DNA of 64,000 bases from a bacterium. Its GTDB lineage: Bacteria; SAR324; NAC60-12. Where the stretch lies: contig CBDBHR010000029.1 in the NCBI GenBank assembly GCA_965205865.1, forward strand, positions 32,001-96,000, in the 5' to 3' direction. The first letter of the stretch is position 1. The number at the start of each line of letters is the position of its first letter. This document shows, one piece after another, positions 25,780-43,600 of the stretch. Below the pieces are notes generated by a model, which was not told the DNA's origin, did no database searches, and worked only from the letters and a program-made list of their open reading frames with translations. The position numbers and the translations under genes are program-made.

Positions 25780-25854
25780 CGCTAACGTTTGGATAACCTT
25801 ATTCGAGGGAAGCGAAAAGCGCCCCCTCGAATAAGATTTATCCACTGGTTCGCA
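25780..25854 (-). other. Putative attC site
   Basis: Minus strand reads TGCGAAC-spacer-GGATAAATC..hairpin..GGTTATCC-spacer-GTTAGCG, an imperfect palindrome with an extra base in the first arm. Confidence 0.7.
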
Positions 25855-26135: not shown

Positions 26136-26384
26136 GGAGATCGCAAGAACAAATTTCACCCATATTTTCTAAACAGTGTCTTAAAAAGAAGACCCTGTTT
26201 AACCAAAGAGATCTGTATTAGAATTGTTGAATCTTCAATTGATGCAGAAGAACAAGAAGACGGACGATTCCGTTTTTGGGGATTTGTTCCGGAACCAGGA
26301 ACTTATTTGAGGGTTATTACCGAAGCGGATCTAGTAACAATCTTCAATGCTTTCAAAGATCCTGATTTTAACCCAAAAATTTAA
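26136..26384 (+). pseudogene. Type II TA toxin (partner of DUF2283), start codon lost
   Basis: YFLNSVLKRRPCL..EQEDGRFRFWGFV..YLRVI..TIFNAFKD, immediately upstream of the DUF2283 gene. Confidence 0.65.
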
Positions 26385-26393
26385 AGAGGACAT

Positions 26394-26624
26394 ATGAAAT
26401 TAGAATATTATCCTGAAGCTGACGCTCTTTATATTGCATTAAAGAACGAATGCAAAAGCGTAGACTCTAAAGAAGTCTCAAAAGGAATTGTGCTGGACTA
26501 TGACAAAGATGGAAATGTAATAGGAATTGATATTCATAGCCAAGCGAGTCAAAAGGTTGATCTTGATAGTATCAACTTTGATAAATTTTTTGAAGCTAAA
26601 CAAGAAAATGCAGAAGTTGCATAA
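26394..26624 (+). CDS. DUF2283-family antitoxin
   Basis: MKLEYYPEADALYI..GIVLDYDKDGNVIGIDI. Confidence 0.88.
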   Translation: MKLEYYPEADALYIALKNECKSVDSKEVSKGIVLDYDKDGNVIGIDIHSQASQKVDLDSINFDKFFEAKQENAEVA

Positions 26625-26657
26625 TCTGTTTTGGAAATCATTCAGAACCAAAGTAGC

Positions 26658-27637
26658 GACGCGGTAGGAATGCCAGTTACCCGGCACCCCCCGCACAGAT
26701 CCCCGCATGAAGTTTTCCCTCACGGGGCTCCTCGGTTGTACTCGCTTCCGCTCAGCGTCTTTCTAAAACAACAGTATGCAGACGTTTCTTTAAGAACGTC
26801 TGATGAGTTTCGCTTTGTACGTCTTCTCTTTCAACCGCCTCTCTAAATCAGAGAGATTGTCTAAAAGATTTTGAGAATACTCCCTCGCCGTTACTTTGTC
26901 TACTCCGCTGGCTGCCTGCTTATTGAGGTGCTTCCAGCCTTCATAGAGCAACTCTCGATTGAGTAATCCGTAGAGATTTCTAAAGCGATGTTGCTTATTA
27001 GAAGCCGCTGTGATTGCTATACCCCTCAGTGAGGTTGGCTTATGTTTATCCGATCCAGCATTGTCCGGCATAAGTTGCCTTTGATAGGTTAAGTACTTCC
27101 GTCAGGTCCTTCCCCCTGTAGTAGGCTCTCCCTACCTCAGAGTACTACGCCTGATTCGCCACCCTGAAACCAAATGGCTTTCCCCATTAAGGTAATTCTC
27201 ATTCGACCTGTAAAAACAGGCTTCTTTTCAGGGCTTCCCAAGTTCTTGTCCGCATCTTTACTTACATGCCATAGTCTAAGGTGGACCCCGGTGGCCCTTC
27301 ACATCCTCGCCATTGACGGATGCTCTTGTGTTGGCTTCGGCATTCGTTAACACCCTCGCCGACCACGACTACTTGTTTCGAGGCTGTATCAACTTTCAGG
27401 AGGCGGCTCTCCCTACGGCCTGCAAGTTTCTCTGTGTACGCTTCGTGTATCTTGTTCGGATAACCGGTGCCTCTCATGGTGGATTGTCGATCGAGCCGAC
27501 TACCAATGTCCTTTGAGTATCCGGGTGATACCCACAAGATTTCCCGGTAGAGCCTCCGCCATACACGCAACACTCGATACGGGTGACAGGCTAGGTCTTA
27601 CCCGACGGGGACTTGCACCCCGCAAGATGCGCCAAGC
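26658..27637 (-). mobile_element. Group II intron, internally deleted (IIB-like)
   Basis: Domain V/VI GAGCCCCGTGAGGGAAAACTTCATGCGGGGATCTGTGCGGGG..CCTACCGCG. 5' region CTTGGCGCATCTTGCGGGGTGCAAGTCCC. Contains an RT stub. Confidence 0.88.
26790..27071 (-). pseudogene. Group II intron reverse transcriptase, N-terminal (RT0) stub
   Basis: TSLRGIA..HRFRNLY..AASGVDKVT..NLSDLERRLKEKTYKAKLIRR, then a stop. No YADD motif. Confidence 0.9.
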
Positions 27638-27758
27638 TGAGCGTGCAGAACCCCAAATCTAAACTCGGCAAAATTGATAAACTTTCAAATTTCTAAGAAA
27701 CTCAGAAAAAACAATCATTTGCGCGGATTTTTGCTACGTCTCTAGCGGTTTGTTAGGC
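27636..27758 (-). other. Putative long attC site, with its R' end separated by the intron
   Basis: GCCTAAC-AAACC-GCTAGAGACGTAGCAAAAATCC pairs with GGGGTTCTGCACGCTCAGC, leaving extrahelical bases. Confidence 0.6.
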
Positions 27759-27795
27759 TACCTCTTTTCTGACGCCACAAAATTTTGTATACTAA

Positions 27796-28053
27796 TTATG
27801 CGGCAACATCCCATTGCGCAGCTTTCGACACACGAACATATTCATCTTCATGTAACCAATGAACAACATCCGAATAAGTTGGCGAACTATAAGCTACTTC
27901 ATAGTTTTCTTTGGGATCATAAACTTTAAATTGTTTATCCTCATTGCCAACGATTAGAACATAAGGAGGATAAGCTGTTTCATCAACCCAATATTCACAG
28001 GCTCCGATTAACTTATTATCTTCATGTGTTTGGTTTGGTACGTGGGATGACAT
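27796..28053 (-). CDS. Small acidic protein, immunity-protein-like
   Basis: 85 aa, EYWVDE..PYVLIV..YDPKENY..WLHEDEY. Overlaps the upstream gene. Confidence 0.55.
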   Translation of the reverse strand: MSSHVPNQTHEDNKLIGACEYWVDETAYPPYVLIVGNEDKQFKVYDPKENYEVAYSSPTYSDVVHWLHEDEYVRVSKAAQWDVAA

Positions 28054-28384
28054 GGTATTCCTTTCTTTTATTAATTTTCATTTCTGCGTAATGGAGGGGA
28101 AGCACATTACCATCCAGATCAAAACGATAACCGATTTGCTCTTTAAACATAAGTCCAAATCGTTGGTGTCCTCGAATCCATCCTGAAAAACACCCTTGCT
28201 GAGAAATTAATTCTGTAACATATTTTAGTTTTGATTCATCATTAAACACATGAATTTCACCTTAATTTTTCAATTTTTTTTGACTCTCCAATATGTTTGG
28301 AAGGTGTTTTCTTGTATGTTTTTCCGATTTAAAAATGGAATCATGAATTCCTGTTCCTGTTTTTCCAACAATCGTATATTTCAT
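28022..28384 (-). pseudogene. Small basic protein with one in-frame TAA (toxin-tip-like)
   Basis: MKYTIVGKTGTGIHDSIFKSEKHTRKHLP..KN*GEIHVFNDESKL reads in a single frame. Confidence 0.5.
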
Positions 28385-28436: not shown

Positions 28437-28512
28437 GCCCAACGTCCGGGATAACCATATTCGAGGGGGCGCTTTTCGCTTCCCTCGAATACGGTTTATC
28501 CCCTTGTTCGCA
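28437..28512 (-). other. Putative attC site
   Basis: Minus strand reads TGCGAAC..GGATAAACC..GGTTATCC..GTTGGGC (a perfect GTTRRRY). Homologous to 25780-25854. Confidence 0.72.
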
Positions 28513-28546: not shown

Positions 28547-29441
28547 CCTAAATTGAGCGATTCTGAAAAAGGATCAGATTTTCAAGATGATTTTTTTGCC
28601 TGAGAAAGGCAATCATTCTGAAATCAGATTTATATCATCAAATCCATGGATGTTTGAGTGAGAATGAGCATCAAAATGCTGTTTTCAGATGTGGAAAGTC
28701 TTCATTTCTCATGTTTTGGACGCACTTATCTCCTTAAACTTTAATGTTTTTGTTTTTTAATTGAGGCGAAACCCGTTGATCAGATTGGCGTCAATGCGTG
28801 CTGGCAGGTGGCAAATAGTTGGTCCAATTGCAAGCGCTCAAAGGTCGTTTTGGGTATTTTCAAGATCAGTTTTCCGGCATGACGAAGCAGTTTGCCTGCC
28901 GTATCAAGAAACTGGCGCCGGAAGGAATCAGCATACATCGTTACCGCAATCACTGGCTTGCTGACATCTTCTTTGAAGGCTTCGAAGAGGTTATTGCCAA
29001 GCAGCATCAGGTAGTAGCATGCGGTATTGGAAATGAAGTCCTTGAAGGGTAGTTGTTGATGACCAAAGTTTTTCAGCGCCCGGTTGGCCAGTTCATCCTT
29101 TCCCCGTCCGTGGTACGAGCCAAGGATGCTATGAGCATTGATGCGCTTTTTATTTTTACGCATCGAAGCAAACATCCTTTCGATGATCGGCATCAGCCGA
29201 ATGTTTTGCAGATACTGGGCAAACAAGGCCAATCCGGCACGACTTGTCAAGTGTTCATCGGTTGGCTGAATGGCATCAATTATCTGTTTCTTTTTATCCT
29301 GAACTGTTATATTTTTTTCCATAAAGCTCTCTACTTGTTGGGTTGTGTTAGATTTTGTCGTGATATTGTTTTTACTCACTGAAATATAACATATTTTCCC
29401 CAAGGTTGGGAGCTTTTTTATTACGAATCGCTCAACTTAGG
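28547..29441 (-). mobile_element. IS1380-family element, internally deleted
   Basis: Inverted repeats CCTAAATTGAGCGATTC / GAATCGCTCAACTTAGG. The ORF joins the N-terminus LTSRAGLALF to the C-terminus YHGRGKDELANRALK..LPF. Confidence 0.85.
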
Positions 29442-29495: not shown

Positions 29496-32400
29496 TCAAT
29501 GGACATCAACGTCGGAGAGGTTGAACTCGGGCAGGGTATTGATGATGCGCATGGTTTCGATGCTGACATGGATAATCCGCTTGATGGCGGTTACCAGATC
29601 TTGCGGGTGTTTGAACCGGGCGTTGGGATCGTTGACGATGCCGCTTTGCTTGTCCTTTATGATGCGGTAACGGTCGATGAACCACTGCAGCGGTGTTTTC
29701 CCGTTGACCTGATAGCGATGCGCGGCAGCGGGAATGCCCTGCAAGCTCACGTGCTCGTTGATGCGAAGGGTGGTTTTTTCGTTGTCGAGGAAACGCATTT
29801 TCTGGTGACCGATGCGAAAATGCTCCGCTCTTGCCTCTCCACCGTGCGCGCACTTGATTGTCAACGGGTATTCCTCACAGGTTTCGTAACCGAGGTGGAG
29901 GGTGGCCAGATCATGCCCGGCTTGGGCAAACGAATGAAAATCCGTTGTGAATGGAATGCGTGGTAACTCTTTGGTCAAATCGTTAGCAAATTGATTCCCA
30001 TAACCAGGAGAGTGCAGGAACCCGTAAACATAGTCGAAAATCTGGTCCTTGTCGATCGAGTCATCTTGATAATGCATGCGAAATTCTGCGCAATGCCGTG
30101 TCCGTGATGTTATCGATACGATCCAGTATTTGTCCTAATCCCGGGTTCGCTCCCTGTCCTTCCATCACTTTCGAATACTCATACCGAGGAAAGCACTGTC
30201 CAAAACCGACAAAGTGGAGATCCGGTATCGAATCGACCATGAGCACGGAAAACGAGGTAGTTGATCCAATTCCCGGTACGCAGATTGCGCGGTTTTCAGT
30301 CGAAACGTGCGGGAAAATGCGATCAAGTTGGTACTTGTTGTTCACTAGTGTGTCGCTCTTTTATTAATGTGTAAATAATTCCTTGGTTTGCTATACTACG
30401 AGCTGTCTTTTTTTTTTCATAAATGGAGACAGCATGAGAAAAGCACCAAGTATAAAACTGACCCGGGAAGAACAGGATGAATTGAGCAAAACCGCACGCC
30501 GTCAGACCGGAGCGATGAGAGACACTCGTCGTGCGCACATCATCCTGTTGGCTGCTGATGGCCTTAAGAATCAAGAGATTGCCAAAACGCTTGGAACCAG
30601 CGGTAATGCCGTTGGAAAGTGGCGACGGCGATTTGTTGAAAAAGGAATAACAGGTCTCAATGATGATCCGCGGCCTGGCAGGACACGCATTTTGGAGCGG
30701 ATAAAATCGAGGAGATTGTGAAGAAAACCATTGAAGAGAAGCCTGAGGACCGTACCCATTGGAGCACGCGATCGATGGCCAAGGCAGTTGGCGTAGGCAA
30801 GACAACCGTCGGTAAAGTATGGAAAGCCCATCGCCTCAAGCCTCATCTGGAAAAAACATTTAAGTTGTCGCATGATAAGCATCACTGCGAAACTGAAAGA
30901 TGTCATCGGAAGGTACATGAATCCTCCTGAGAAAGCGCTGGTCTTGAGCGTCGATGAGAAAATCACAAATCCAGGCACTCGATCGCACCCAGCCAGGTCT
31001 TCCACTGAAAGAGGGCGCAATGGCACCAGAACTCATGATTATATCCGTCATGGCACCTGCTGTCTGTTTACTGCTTTGAATACGCAGACAGGGAAAGTGC
31101 TCGCTCGCTGTGAAAAACGGCACCGACACCAAGAGTATCTGCGCTTCCTGCGTCTTATTGACAAGTCTTACCTCGAAGCAACTGCAGGTATCACTTGATC
31201 CTGGACAATTACGCCACCCACAAACATCTTAAGGTGAAAGAATGGCTCAAAAAACACCCGCGATTTCACCCGCATTTCATTCCTACTTCCTCCTCATGGC
31301 TGAAATGGTGGAACGCTTTTTTGGCAAGATCACTGCAGAACGGATTCGACGAGGCGCCTTCAAAAGCGTCCTCGAGTTGACCAAGCCATCATAGTTACAT
31401 CGAGACACACAATCGAAACCCAAAACCCTATGTCTGGACTAAAACTGCCGAAGAAATTATCGACGTACTCAAACCTGTCTACCAAATAACCAATAATACA
31501 ATGTATTAAACAGGCAATACACTAGCACATATTCAACATAGCAATGCTGCTTGACAAATGGATCGGTATGGAGATTCTCTTATCTTTTTCAGCTCGAAGA
31601 AAATTTTCTTTTCGCTTTTCAAATTATTCCAATTTGATCCCATCGAAGATGTGAGGAAAACAATTGTGTTACTTCATAGAGGGTCAAGTCACGATGATCT
31701 CTGTTAGCTAGTATCGCTCCCAGATAGTCTTTGTTGCCAATTGTGCGTTTTGCGCGCAAGCATCTTGAGAAAAATTGTACAGATACGCATCTCTGCTGGT
31801 ATTTAATCCTTGTGAATACAAATTGAAAACAGCATCGTCAGTCTTGCCTGCCTTGGCGTCCTTCGACCCCATTGGAAAGAAGCGTTGGAATGCTTCATTA
31901 CGCAGGCCCACCCAGTCGTGATGTCGATCAGGCGTAATCGTTTGCCAGTCATTAATACCAGCAATTGACCCTGTATTACTCAGTATTTCTAGTTTCTCAT
32001 CGCGTTTGAGATAGTCACCAACATCGTGGTAGAGGATACGATGATTTACGCGATTGACATGCGGATTACGGACGAGAAGGGTGATGGCGACTGGTGCTCG
32101 TGAGCCCTGGCCAAATGCATTATCACCTTCTGAACGTCTGAGTTCACCTGACGTTCTAGCATTCCCCCGCAGGTGCAGCACATAAATGGAGCTGAACTCT
32201 TCTGCCAGGCAGGCCCGGACACCGGAATCCGCATTGCCATCGACCCAGGAACCGTTGGTCACAAAGGCGATAACGCCATGTTTACCAATCCGGTCCGAGG
32301 CCCAGCGGATGGCCATCTTGTAGGTGTCGTAGAGGCTGTGTTTCAATGATACTGTAGAACGAGCGACATACGTTTCACTGACGCGACTTTTCAACTCAGG

Positions 32401-35400
32401 ATAGTTAATATTAGGATTATTATCTGCTGCGCTTCGTTGTTGTTTTGACCATGGTGGATTGCCCACGATAACCTCGATCGGTTGATCCTGTTGTCGTTCC
32501 GCACGTTCGCTGTTGTCCGGTAGCCAGGATCTGGGGAACCCCTTGCGTTCCGTATGCAGATTGAAGGTGTCCGTTAAAACGATGCCATCGAAGGGTTCAT
32601 AGGAGCTTGCCGTACCGCGCCGTCCGAGATACGCCTCCTCGATGTGAATGGCCGCAATGTAATAAGCGAGCAGGACGATCTCTTTGGCATGAAGCTCGCG
32701 ATGGTACTTCCTGGAGAGATCGGTCGGCTTGATCAGCGCGGACTGGAGCAAGCGCACCAGAAAGATTCCCGTGCCGGTGAAGGGGTCGAGGACGTGAACG
32801 CCTTCATCGCTCAGACTGCGGCCGAATTCCTTACGCAACACATGATCCGCGCTGTTGAGAATGAAGTCCACGATTTCCTCGGGGGTGTAAACGATGCCGA
32901 GGCGGTCGGAATCCTTTTTCAGGGCAGTGGCGAAGAATTTCTGGTAGAGTTCCATCAACACGCGCTGGCGGGCATCGCTGTTGTCGAGTCCACGAGCACG
33001 CAGACGGACGCTTTCGTAGAAGCGCTCGAGATCCCGCGTTTCGTTTTCAAGACCGAACTCTCCGAAATCCCGCTGCAGCGCCTCCAAGGCCTTGGCTACC
33101 GGATTGCTGGCAGCGAAATCATAATGCTCGAAAAGGGCTTCGAAGACCGGTCGCGTGAGGAGATGCTGGGCCATCATGTCGATGGCATTCTCTTTGCGGA
33201 TCGACTCGTTGATCGAGACCTTGAGTTCCTCGTGGAAGGCGTCGAACCATTTACTGAGAGTTGCGTTTTGGGGATTGGCCAGCAAGCTCTCGATGCGATG
33301 CACCAGTTTCCGGAAAATTTCCCCCACGTCCCTGGCCCAACTCTCCCAGTATTTACGATCTCCGCATTTTTCCACGACTTTGGCATAAATCGCGCCGGGT
33401 GGCAGATCCAGCGGGGGAATTGGAAATTCAAGGTTTCTCGCAGTGGCGCCATCATTGCCACTGAAGATAATGCGACTGGTCGGATTGTCGTTGAGATCGA
33501 TATGATTGATTTCGGCATTGAAGCGGTCATCGTGTGAACGCAAAGCGCACAGAACGCTCCAGACGACGGCAAAGCGTTCGTTGTCATTAAAGACTACCTC
33601 CGGATCAATGCCGGCGGGTACCGCGATGGGCAGTATGATGTAACCGTATTTTTTGCCCTCGGATTTGCGCATGACGCGACCGACGGCCTGAACGATGTCG
33701 ACGTGCGAGTTCCTGGGATTCATGAAAAGCACCGCATCCAGAGCGGGTACGTCGATCCCCTCGGAAAGGCAGCGCGCGTTGGAGAGAATACGGCAGTATT
33801 CCCCGGAACCCTCCTTCAACCATTCGATACGGGATTTACGATCGAGGGCGTGATGCTGACCGTCCACGTGTTGCGTCTCGCAGTGAAATGCGGCGGAGTT
33901 TTTTGAGTCGGGTAAGGACTCGATGGCATGTTCGATGATGCGGTTCCAATGGCTCTGCAACCTTTTCGAGGAGGCGATCGTGTTGGTGAATGCGATGGCG
34001 CGAGTGAGGGGATTGAGCGGTCCTTCTCGAGTATTTTTGTTCTCCGGATTCTGCAGGGCATTCCAGCATCCAATGATTTTAGCGGCATCGGTGATGTTGA
34101 TTTCGCTGTCTCCTTCTGCCAGGTGCGCTTGCAGAGCCGCGTCGACGAACTGTTCGGACATGGCGAAAACCACTACTTTGTAATCGGACAACAGCTCCTG
34201 TTCGACCGCGCGGGAGAAGGGAAGCCGGTGGAACTCCGGTCCATAGGTCTCAGGATCATCCATAGAGAACACTTCGACGTCGTGATGCGCCGCCTTTGCT
34301 TTGGCGCCTGCCGTGTAGAGACGAGGCGTTGCCGTCATGTAGAGTCTTTTTCTGGCCCGGATCCTCTGTTCATCGTGAACGAGTACGAAGGGTGAGGTTT
34401 TGTCAGCGGGACGATCGACACCGGTCGTCCTGTGGGCTTCGTCGCAGAGCACGATATCAAAAGCAGGCGCTCCTCCATCCTGCGCACGTTCCACAAGGCC
34501 AAGCGACTGGTAAGTACAAAAGACCACCGTCATCAGGTCCTTATGCGCATCCTCGAGCGCATTGGAAATCAGCACCGTGTCCGTGGTGACCGGAATTTCA
34601 AGCTCCTGCATCGATGCGTCTTCATCCTCTTTACCGGCACGCGTATCGGAGCAGATACCGACGTAGCGTTGTGGAACAGCCTTTTGCGTTGCCCATTCCC
34701 GCATCGACTGGGAAAAGAGGGAAATCGAAGGCACCAGATAAAGCACCCGGCCACCGATGCCTGCGGCGTCTTCCGCAATGCGCAGCGCGGTAAAGGTCTT
34801 TCCCGTACCGCAAGCCATGATCAATTTGCCCCGGTCATATTGTTCAAATTGCCTTTTGACGTCGTGCAATGCAGCCTGCTGGTGGGGACGCAGTATGAAC
34901 GGTTCGTGTCGATAGGAAAGCTCTTCCGGATCGGCATGAGCCAGATCAGGCCAGTCGAAAGACCGGCTTGCGAGATCACTGTAGTGGATCACGGCGCATG
35001 CAGGTTTCAGGGGTGCGATCGTTTTTTTCGCGTTTGGCCCCCATTCGGCACCGGTATCGACGACGATACGGGACGTGAACGGGTCACGTGCCGATGCAGA
35101 GACAAAGGAGTCGAGAGCGGGTTTCGATATCCTGGTGTCAGGCGCATAGCACTTGCACTGAATGGCGCAGTAGCCCCCTCCCCGTTCCTCCGCGACCAGA
35201 TCGATGCCCGTATCATTGCCATCGAATTCAGCCTGCTCTTCCTCCCATTCGGAGTAAAGCCGGACCTGGGAAAATCGTTCCTTGTATACCGGGTCCTCCG
35301 TCAGGTACTTCTTCATCAACCGCTCGAACTTACGCCCTTTCGCCGCTTCGGTGCCTGCAATGGACCTGATGTGATCCAACGCATTCTGAAATCCGTTGTT

Positions 35401-35415
35401 TTCGTTCATCTTCAA
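29496..35415 (-). pseudogene. Type ISP restriction-modification enzyme, copy 1 (Mrr-like nuclease, SF2 helicase, N6A MTase, TRD)
   Basis: GIDLV..AIQCK, ACGTGKT, DEAH, DPFTGTG and GNPPW motifs. Broken by frameshifts near 31730 and 30080 and by an IS630 insertion. Confidence 0.92.
30348..31522 (+). mobile_element. IS630-family element with a frameshifted transposase
   Basis: TA duplicated on both sides (CTAG context), with TAGTGT inverted ends. THWSTR, VDEK, HDYIRHGT, LDNYATHK and PTSSSWL motifs are spread over several frames. Confidence 0.92.
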
Positions 35416-42713: not shown

Positions 42714-43031
42714 TAGCCATTGTCATCAAACGGAGAAAAATCTGATCATTTTGTAAAGGGATCAATACCGGATCTTCTATCAAAAACTGATGATGATCGA
42801 ACTCTCTGAAGACTGTCTACAGAAGGATTACCTTAGCTTTTTGAGTCCCCTTCCTCGTTCAACCACCAGTATACGTGCGTCCCTGCGAACGCGGCGTTCG
42901 ACTGGGTGTAGTACCAGGGTGTTTTACCCGCATTGTACGTTTATCACCCTGATTTACCGGTCCTGCTGCGGGGCTTCCACGCGGACGGTGACGATATCCG
43001 TGCCATGGTATTGCTAAAGAGGGGTCAGGCT

Positions 43032-43600
43032 GTGCGCCAGGAAAGCTGGCAAGAAATAGAGAGTGAAAGTCTCTTACTCGGTAAGGCAGTAACGACCCGC
43101 CGAGTCCCCGAGTCATGAGTGGTTATTCGCAAGGATAGGCGCTAAGCGTTGACAGGGGAGAACACAGGCTCGGTATTGAGCTCCGAAATCATAGTTTCAG
43201 GCGCTGACCTTGTGGTCTGGTGGGGAAGGCCATATCAACCGAAGGCGTTAGCGTGAGTCTCGGCTGAGCCTGGCGGAGTCAAAGACCCGGCGCAGGTGTG
43301 GAAGTTTCTTGATCGGAACCTGGGAGATCCTGAAGACGACTGTCAACATTCTATTGGTAGTCAGATCGGGAAAATTAATAAATAACCCCGATATCTACGT
43401 CTTCAGGAAGTCGGACAAGTTCGTAGTAGCGATGAAGCGGCGAACAATGAGATCATTTTCAGAGAGTAACAATGCAAAGGAAATCAACGGAGCCTGTGGA
43501 GCAAAGGGACTTGGCTGAGAGGAATTCTGCTTGCCCTCCCGTATTCGGAACTCAGAGGCCGGTAAAATCAGAGAGCGGTTTAAGCAGGGTGCGCCAAACG
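43032..43600 (+). mobile_element. Group II intron 5' part, truncated at the start of the RT ORF
   Basis: Starts GTGCGCCAGGAAAGCTGGC. Conserved blocks TAAGCGTTGACAGGGG, TGAGCTCCGAAA, GGGGAAGGC and GGAAGTCGGAC. Ends in SGLSRVRQTA. Confidence 0.85.

Follow-up and report, generated by a model that had tools for sequence, protein, structure and literature searches.

Remnant of a class-E-like group II intron in a cassette-like cluster points to a lineage that may home to attC sites on the cassette-sense strand

The habit of inserting into attC recombination sites has hitherto been detailed for only one class of group II introns, class C, and on the strand opposite to the one considered here. A degenerate intron on the minus strand of a bacterial DNA stretch of 64,000 nucleotides (hereafter, the window) raises the question of whether a second kind of intron has acquired the same habit, as a first-pass annotation had proposed. 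To answer it, one needs to know what remains of this copy, to which class it belongs, where its full-length relatives insert and whether the site that it now occupies was an attC.

The assignment to a group II intron on the minus strand was correct: the remnant, which lies between two small cassette-like units (Table 1), matches the Rfam models RF02005 (D1-D4) at 27615-27272 with 109.7 bits (gathering threshold 49) and RF00029 (DV/DVI) at 26732-26659 with 41.7 bits (gathering threshold 40), both on the minus strand. Firm homology to its relatives starts at about 27644/27638, as judged from 5' end alignments and BLAST. A full-length copy, L021, is found in a genome of the same genus and is 99% identical to the remnant over 27638-26791 and over 26791-26656, the corresponding segments being L021 1935-2781 (99.1%) and L021 3793-3928 (99.3%). 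As only these two flanking segments align, 1011 nt of reading frame (L021 2782-3792) have been deleted from the window copy. The deletion junction lies at about 26791, and the last 12 IEP codons are still readable after it, out of frame. The stub that is left shares 95% identity with the N-terminal 93 residues of the 443-aa IEP P0001 and gives no Pfam match on its own, confirming that most of the RT has been lost.

Table 1 Features of the intron remnant and its surroundings, in window positions; a slash in a sequence marks the insertion point or the equivalent place in an unoccupied site.
Feature	Positions	Strand	Basis and details
Group II intron remnant	26658..27646	-	Rfam matches, BLAST to L021, 5' and 3' end alignments with relatives
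Domain V	26698..26730	-	Full length, AGC triad, GAAAA pentaloop; RF00029 and family alignment
Domain VI	26658..26694	-	Bulged A at 26665; last intron base C at 26658; RF00029 and 3'-end alignment
EBS1 (UAACG) in D1 hairpin loop	27345..27349	-	Covariation column across relatives
RT stub ORF, 93 aa (RT0 to start of RT1)	26790..27071	-	ORF list
5' flank, putative left and centre of degenerate attC	27647..27761	-	Ends ...GGGGTTCT
First five 3' exon bases GCTAC, putative rest of split R' box	26653..26657	-	Pairs with GTAGC in the fold
attC-like imperfect palindrome 1	25780..25854	.	Repeat search; fold z = -5.63; minus strand ends ...AAACGTTA/GCG
attC-like imperfect palindrome 2	28437..28512	.	Fold z = -3.71; plus strand begins GCCCAAC, minus strand ends ...GGACGTTG/GGC
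Cassette-like unit A	27796..28249	-	DUF6972 ORF 28249-28022 (PF22319, E = 5e-27) and 85-aa ORF 28053-27796
Cassette-like unit B	26136..26624	+	82-aa stop-to-stop frame 26136-26384 and DUF2283 ORF 26394-26624 (PF10049, E = 8e-16)

The 3' end of the remnant is clean. It closes with ...CCTACCGCGTC (...CGCGTC) at 26658, exactly as in L021 and in two further relatives, L022 and L023, so that the GTC ending that had been listed as a caveat is shared with these relatives. For the 5' end, we aligned the 5' regions of 80 loci fetched with the IEP alignment. The family starts with GTGCG-CCAAGC-GAA-GCTTGG-CGCATC, and the Rfam model begins only 35-45 nt inside this end. The window copy has GCACGC--TCAGCTTGGCGCATC at this place; it reads GCACGC--TCAGC as opposed to GTGCGCCAAGCGAAGC in relatives, and keeps the loop and the 3' strand of the first hairpin. 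In place of the first 9-16 nt of an intact intron (GCGCG and the terminal hairpin's CCAAGC strand), the remnant shows a gap or garbled sequence, and the alignment reveals in it neither the GUGCG (5' GUGYG) terminus nor an intact first hairpin, both of which are present in relatives. The loss of the GTGCG end had already been recognised. It also means that the window ribozyme is not intact, given that the 5' strand of the hairpin and GUGCG are missing or garbled, and the statement that this copy keeps the ribozyme domains has to be withdrawn accordingly.

A larger loss, of about 165 nt of domain I, had been considered on the basis of a GTGCG at 42876 that seemed to open the second intron of the window, and was rejected because the alignment of the relatives places the start of the Rfam model so close to the 5' end. 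Directly 5' of the remnant lies the 12-nt TTTGGGGTTCTG (27646..27657, minus strand), which recurs as TTTGGTTCTG at 26652-26643, beginning 5 nt past the 3' junction; we have no explanation for this recurrence. Other mobile-element debris is present in the surrounding 6 kb.

The same genome contains two further copies of the intron, at C30:986464-986957 and C3:13971-14070. All three copies lack the same 5' terminal bases, though their upstream flanks are unrelated, which suggests that the shared loss arose when reverse transcription stopped at the terminal hairpin, that is, that cDNA synthesis halted there. No IEP elsewhere in this genome exceeds 43% identity, and decay has gone further in the two other copies than in the one in the window. 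Thus, the suggestion that the remnant might be mobilised in trans finds no support. Deprived of its RT and its 5' terminus and flanked by a 5' exon that does not match, the window copy would no longer be able to splice or move. It is a fossil, and mainly a pointer to its lineage.

The class of the intron can be read from the relatives and, in part, from the remnant itself. Full-length relatives measure 1.9-2.1 kb, with about 700 nt of RNA outside the ORF. Their IEPs, of about 440 residues (438-460 aa), consist of RT and maturase only (PF00078 plus PF08388) and have no endonuclease domain; P0001 scores 350 bits on TIGR04416 (group II RT/maturase, cut-off 300) and carries just these two Pfam domains. 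DV is 33-34 nt long and capped by a GAAAA pentaloop, both in the window and in the relatives. Class C ribozymes, on the other hand, are small and have a shortened DV. The full-length pentaloop DV, the length of the relatives and an IEP made up of RT and maturase only exclude class C as far as RNA and protein features can tell, in concordance with the first-pass annotation, which had called the intron non-IIC on account of its full-length DV. In their available text, Nagy et al. 2013 (PMC3753933) single out a DV loop of 5 nt, instead of the usual tetraloop, as a special trait of classes E and F. The relatives show the class E traits of an IEP with RT and X only, without D/En, and of a 5-nt DV loop, the latter being retained in the window. 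We propose to call the intron class-E-like (IIB-type), a label that rests on these traits.

Where does this lineage insert? As the first-pass annotation had proposed, we tabulated exon flanks, using the 45 relatives whose 5' end could be mapped and whose exon was readable. CGTTA closes the 5' exon in 21 of these 45, the exon end differs from CGTTA by at most one mismatch in 27, and many of the CGTTA-type targets are attC-shaped. A five-base stretch at a single alignment column is exactly complementary to the end of the 5' exon in 30 of 43 relatives, and retargeted members (L039, L041, L053, L056, L066, L076, L094 and L097) show compensatory changes there. Examples of exon ends and the facing intron bases are ATGTTA with TAACAT, AGTACG with CGTACT, TTTATT with AATAAA, AATGCG with CGCATT, TTGTTG with CAACAA and AAGAGT with ACTCTT, the pairing spanning 5-6 bp. 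This covariation identifies the D1 loop as EBS1. In the window, the hairpin loop reads GTTAACG at 27350-27344 and its UAACG core (27349-27345) is retained; it is complementary to the exon end of the lineage, CGTTA, and not to the present flank GGTTCT. A simple scan for a covarying EBS2, with G-U pairs allowed, gave nothing convincing, the best column being satisfied in 11 of 43 relatives. The modelling of EBS1 and EBS2 against IBS, suggested earlier as a check, thus succeeded for EBS1 alone.

We then have to consider the shape of the targets. When the exons are rejoined, they fold in a characteristic way: an R'' box (GCCTAAC, GCATAAC, GCTAAC or CATAAC) is followed by a long imperfect hairpin and then by GTTA/GGC, with the intron inside R'. 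This arrangement is found in L027, L031, L059, L064, L058, L030 and L047, and in the second intron copy of L059 too. The L059 array also has unoccupied sites ending in CCGTTAGCC or CCGTTAGGC. To put numbers on this shape, we used a constrained-fold attC score, in which bases exactly complementary to the final four of the exon are required 40-150 nt upstream and each site is compared with 100 dinucleotide shuffles. Values of p <= 0.05 were obtained for 11 of 39 relatives and of p <= 0.02 for 9 of them; 28 of the 39 did not pass. A finder of attC-like sites written for this analysis was not selective enough in GC-rich DNA, where it returned similar counts on both strands, and served only for the canonical sites of the L110 array. 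L021, the closest intact copy, occupies a GC-rich site that is not attC-like (fold z = +1.74) and has CGTTT as its exon end. In a quick unrooted tree of the IEPs, the CGTTA type is spread over all subclades and the retargeted members stand at the tips; its own-genome outgroups were long-branched and misplaced, leaving the tree without a root.

The hosts of the relatives are often integron carriers. The curated cut-off of the IntI model TIGR02249 is exceeded in 30 of 50 host genomes (3 of 5 and 27 of 45); the figure is 16 of 88 among genomes of the window's phylum and 0 of 14 among controls. The groups compared are not matched, and the excess is therefore to be read as a tendency only. Six loci share a contig with intI: L024 at 3.5 kb from the gene, L030 at 4.8 kb, L076 at 12 kb, L023 at 30 kb and L022 at 45 kb, together with L059, whose two intron copies lie at 5.2 and 8.6 kb; the lengths of the contigs bear out this mapping. 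The intron points away from a divergent intI, that is, in the direction of the cassettes, at five of these six loci, and at L059 the intI gene and the introns run in the same direction. A same-strand ORF ends at most 250 nt upstream of the intron in 10 of the 13 loci examined. The CGTTA exon ends with their covarying EBS1, the attC-shaped targets, the IntI found in 30 of 50 hosts and the six loci on intI contigs indicate that the lineage, in part of the family only, inserts into attC sites on the cassette-sense strand.

Whether the window's own site is of this type is less readily answered. An extended R'' box, GTAGCCTAAC, lies at 27761-27752 on the minus strand; within it, GCCTAAC (27758-27752) has the canonical R'' form RYYYAAC, and it is located 35 nt past the stop of the 85-aa ORF with which unit A ends, in the same sense as the intron. 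The best inverted repeat at the site spans the junction: GTAGCCTAAC and GTTCT/GCTAC are complementary at 8 of 10 positions, a value that 309 of 5000 shuffles and 97 of 1622 positions drawn at random from the window also reach (p ~0.06) and that is hence marginal. The rejoined R' box reads GTTCT/GC and does not match the RRR of GTTRRRY. In the minimum-energy fold of the rejoined exons, GTAGC..AAC pairs with GTT..GCTAC across the junction, and a candidate L pair of 5 bp can be picked out by eye. The fold of the rejoined exons does not stand out from that of shuffled sequences (z = -0.46), the attC-score test gives p = 0.26, and a repeat search found no sequence likeness between the putative attC and the two flanking palindromes.

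Other sequencing runs give a view of the same junction. In run X17, an RNA library from another sample, a contig of 212 nt contains 60 nt that match 26598-26657 and no intron: in the intron sense, ...TTTGCGTTA precedes 26657, giving GCGTTA/GCTAC. Contigs of runs X5 and X7 also cease to match exactly at 26657, and X4 has the window's own structure. The 19-letter motif beside the intron-free junction of X17 is absent from the window's genome. No intI was found in that genome, which is 91.9% complete, or in the relative of the same genus, the best match reaching 43 bits against a cut-off of 265. With a marginal complementarity, a weak fold and a genome that lacks intI, we regard the attC reading of the site as plausible, and put the chance that the target was an attC at slightly better than even. 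The proposal of an attC-homing intron therefore stands for the lineage, given the CGTTA/EBS1 match, the targets and the IntI of the hosts; for the window's own site it is plausible only.

The neighbourhood of the remnant resembles a cassette array. The genome has no other repeat like the two flanking palindromes of about 75 nt, both of which fold much more stably than shuffled sequences (Table 1) and have an R-spacer-L box architecture. On the intron's strand they end in CGTTA/G and CGTTG/G, and these ends may represent unoccupied targets of the lineage's type. Extrahelical bases of an attC mark its bottom strand; the palindromes have an extra base in the 3' arm on the plus strand, so that the minus strand would be the top strand. 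Cassette-like unit A has the sense of the intron, which agrees with the cassette-sense orientation proposed earlier, since the intron lies in the sense of the small ORFs upstream of it; unit B is antisense to the intron. The units are about 800 and 870 bp in size, a cassette-like spacing. Read along the minus strand, the region may thus be a CALIN, formed by the palindrome at 28512-28437, cassette A, the split attC with the intron, cassette B and the palindrome at 25854-25780.

The most serious alternative holds that the remnant is an ordinary stray, a 5'-truncated and ORF-deleted copy that reached AT-rich intergenic DNA by ectopic retrotransposition; the likeness to an attC would then be due to chance, and the palindromes would be unrelated elements (REP- or MITE-like, or transposon ends). 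Such an origin would be compatible with the three statistics obtained for the window site (complementarity, fold and attC score), with a genome devoid of intI and with the position of the closest intact copy in a site that is not attC-like. The 5' bases missing from all three copies of the genome, next to unrelated flanks, resemble the outcome of incomplete reverse transcription, and the mobile-element debris nearby would be in keeping with a stray as well. Against it stand the conserved specificity of the lineage for CGTTA at attC ends, the canonical GCCTAAC at the expected distance past a same-sense ORF, the intron-free junction GCGTTA/GCTAC in X17, palindromes that combine the box architecture of an attC with the target motif of the lineage on the intron's strand, and units of some 800-870 bp that fit cassettes. 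We consider a stray unlikely, but to be taken seriously.

Two further readings fare worse. According to the anatomy given in the first-pass annotation, the right arm of an attC (..CTGCACGCTCAGC) runs straight into the intron, which would sit between this L' arm and the spacer, with GCTACTTTG-GTTCTGA downstream supplying spacer and R' box. A GTT-containing heptamer, GTTCTGA, does occur 9 nt past the 3' junction. At least the GCTCAGC of the supposed arm belongs to the intron, however, because it aligns with the loop and 3' strand of its first hairpin and has as its counterpart GCGAAGC in L021 and, in the C30 and C3 copies, GCTAAGC. Moreover, GTTCTGAATG is complementary to the R'' region at 4 of 10 positions (by eye) as against 8 of 10 for the repeat that spans the junction, which makes the latter the better inverted repeat, and the relatives insert inside R' after GTTA, not ahead of a spacer. 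The R' box is not supplied by the downstream GTTCTGA, and this anatomy is very improbable. The remaining candidate, a class C attC-targeting intron of the known S.ma.I2 type, would account for the association with attC-like sites and for relatives whose IEP has no endonuclease domain. It is contradicted by the sense instead of antisense orientation, by the RNA (about 700 nt outside the ORF, relatives of 1.9-2.1 kb, a DV of 33-34 nt with a pentaloop), by the RF02005 match and by an EBS1-IBS1 pairing of 5-6 bp, and we give it next to no credence.

We therefore favour, as the probable explanation, that the window holds a dead copy of a class-E-like, endonuclease-less lineage that homes to attC sites, and that the site itself may have been an attC within an integrase-less cluster (CALIN). 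In the mechanism that we envisage, the EBS1 loop (5'-UAACG) would pair with the 5'-CGTTA that closes attC hairpins on their right-hand side, and the intron would then come to lie inside the R' core (GTTA/GGC), three bases beyond the integrase crossover and on the cassette-sense strand, from which it could in principle be spliced out of cassette transcripts. As the crossover (G/TT) is upstream of the insertion point, the intron should travel with the downstream cassette. Two routes could have brought the copy to its place in the window, namely retrohoming in an ancestor and transfer within a cassette; given the position of the crossover, inheritance or acquisition along with cassette B is just as possible.

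On a wider scale, we lean towards the view that this widespread class-E-like lineage is a second, independent attC specialist. Its EBS1 would read the R' core CGTTA, it would insert in the sense orientation and be spliced from transcripts, and the crossover side would keep a near-normal GTTAG. The intron would accompany the downstream cassette when IntI mobilises it, thereby being both a passenger and a shaper of arrays, integrase-less ones included. Such a lineage would alter the picture in which attC targeting belongs to class C only, as it has another class of RNA, uses the opposite strand and has a legible code (UAACG/CGTTA), and it would imply that introns have settled in structured recombination sites on more than one occasion. 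Since insertion into the sense strand permits splicing, introns of this kind need not silence the cassettes downstream, and their position relative to the crossover predicts that they move together with cassettes. The idea can be tested, because full-length relatives have cultured hosts, Motilimonas sp. KMU-193 and Paraglaciecola sp. MB-3u-78.

How does this lineage compare with the introns already known? A 2015 review (PMC4424553) distinguishes, in its accessible part, three kinds of target specificity; attC sites and terminators are in its account targets of class C only, and the other lineages use ordinary homing sites. In the main texts of open-access papers, we found no attC-homing lineage outside class C with a defined pairing code, the cases in PMC7923331 aside. 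Toro and Martinez-Abarca 2013 does not mention attC or integrons in the text available to us (PMC3552965).

The closest functional parallel is provided by the group IIC-attC introns, such as S.ma.I2, which are likewise described as endonuclease-less and as recognising attC through a short conserved EBS and a DNA hairpin (PMC3001079, PMC4424553, both as available in part). They enter the bottom strand, antisense to the cassettes, as also stated in the accessible text of PMC7923331, whereas the window lineage uses the top strand in sense orientation and has an IIB-type RNA with a DV pentaloop. The insertion point differs too, being inside R', after GTTA, in the window lineage. In RNA and protein, the lineage is similar to Cl.be.I2 and Pe.th.I2 (classes E/F), which according to the excerpted text of PMC3753933 have an IIB-like RNA, a 5-nt DV loop and an endonuclease-less IEP. 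For these two introns the same source reports that EBS1-IBS1 is decisive for the choice of the 5' exon and that EBS2 is dispensable for splicing. They had been chosen for their EBS2-IBS2 pairs and have ordinary homing sites (PMC3753933), in contrast to the window lineage, in which a simple scan revealed no covarying EBS2 and whose target is a structured recombination site.

Partial precedents are reported by Sonbol and Siam 2021 (PMC7923331, accessible in part). The CL1 intron UHB.I2 is located just after an attC in cassette orientation, and truncated class E fragments, H.ha.F1 and H.ha.F2, follow attC-like hairpins in a CALIN of Halorhodospira halochloris, which has no intI. The independence of the lineage, as suggested at first, is thereby qualified: the separation from class C stands, and these class E fragments partly anticipate it. 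Like them and like UHB.I2, the window lineage is not of class C and is found in cassette arrays after attC or attC-like hairpins; with H.ha.F1 and H.ha.F2, compared here by description, the window further shares a truncated copy and a host without intI. No conserved exon motif was found for UHB.I2 according to the text available (PMC7923331), and a role of the hairpin is only speculated there. Unlike these single cases, the relatives of the window intron show a conserved CGTTA/EBS1 pairing and a fixed place inside R'.

Elsewhere in the window's own genome (G000), the two further copies of the minus-strand group II intron (see table) are more decayed than the window copy, and the same 5' terminal bases are missing in all three. 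The flanks of the copies on contigs C30 and C3 are unrelated.

A contig of X17, an RNA-library run from another sample, which was matched to window positions 26656-27638, has the last base of the intron running head-to-tail into an intron 5' end that is intact (GCGCGCCAAGCGA...). The same arrangement is present in DNA at 806/807 of L051, a locus of an intron relative, and the family of the window intron has either intron circles or tandem copies.

The second group II intron fragment in the window, with GTGCG at 43033 and an RF02005 match at 43066-43288 (165.6 bits), has an RT frame that seems to be cut off past about 43600. The 5' exon of this fragment ends in GGTCAGGCT, which does not belong to the CGTTA type.

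The region at 25.5-31.7 kb is a mobile-element graveyard. Two attC-like palindromes (25780-25854 and 28437-28512), the second adjoined by a transposase fragment, have their arms and outer flanks in common as direct repeats, while a repeat search found their 14-nt loops to be mutual reverse complements, which gives the appearance of a flipped hairpin tip. A Type ISP restriction-modification gene (29496-35415, minus strand) looks split in two.

Coordinates of intron copies, debris and the L110 integron (window positions unless a contig is named)
Feature	Position	Strand	Remark
Intron copy	G000:C30:986464-986957		
Intron copy	G000:C3:13971-14070		
Second intron fragment	43033-43600	+	GTGCG and RF02005
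DDE_Tnp_1_4 transposase (PF13701)	28780-29403	-	C-terminal fragment
Type_ISP_C piece (PF18135)	29496-30077	-	
HTH and transposase-like ORFs	30383-31380	+	separate the Type ISP pieces
Type ISP N-terminal ORF	31708-35415	-	1235 aa
L110	G005:C37:198700-209400		Terriglobia integron

In L110, a locus of intron relatives, intI and the cassette array run in the same direction. The array includes two attC sites bearing introns, and several intron-free attC sites end in CCGTTAGCC or CCGTTAGGC.
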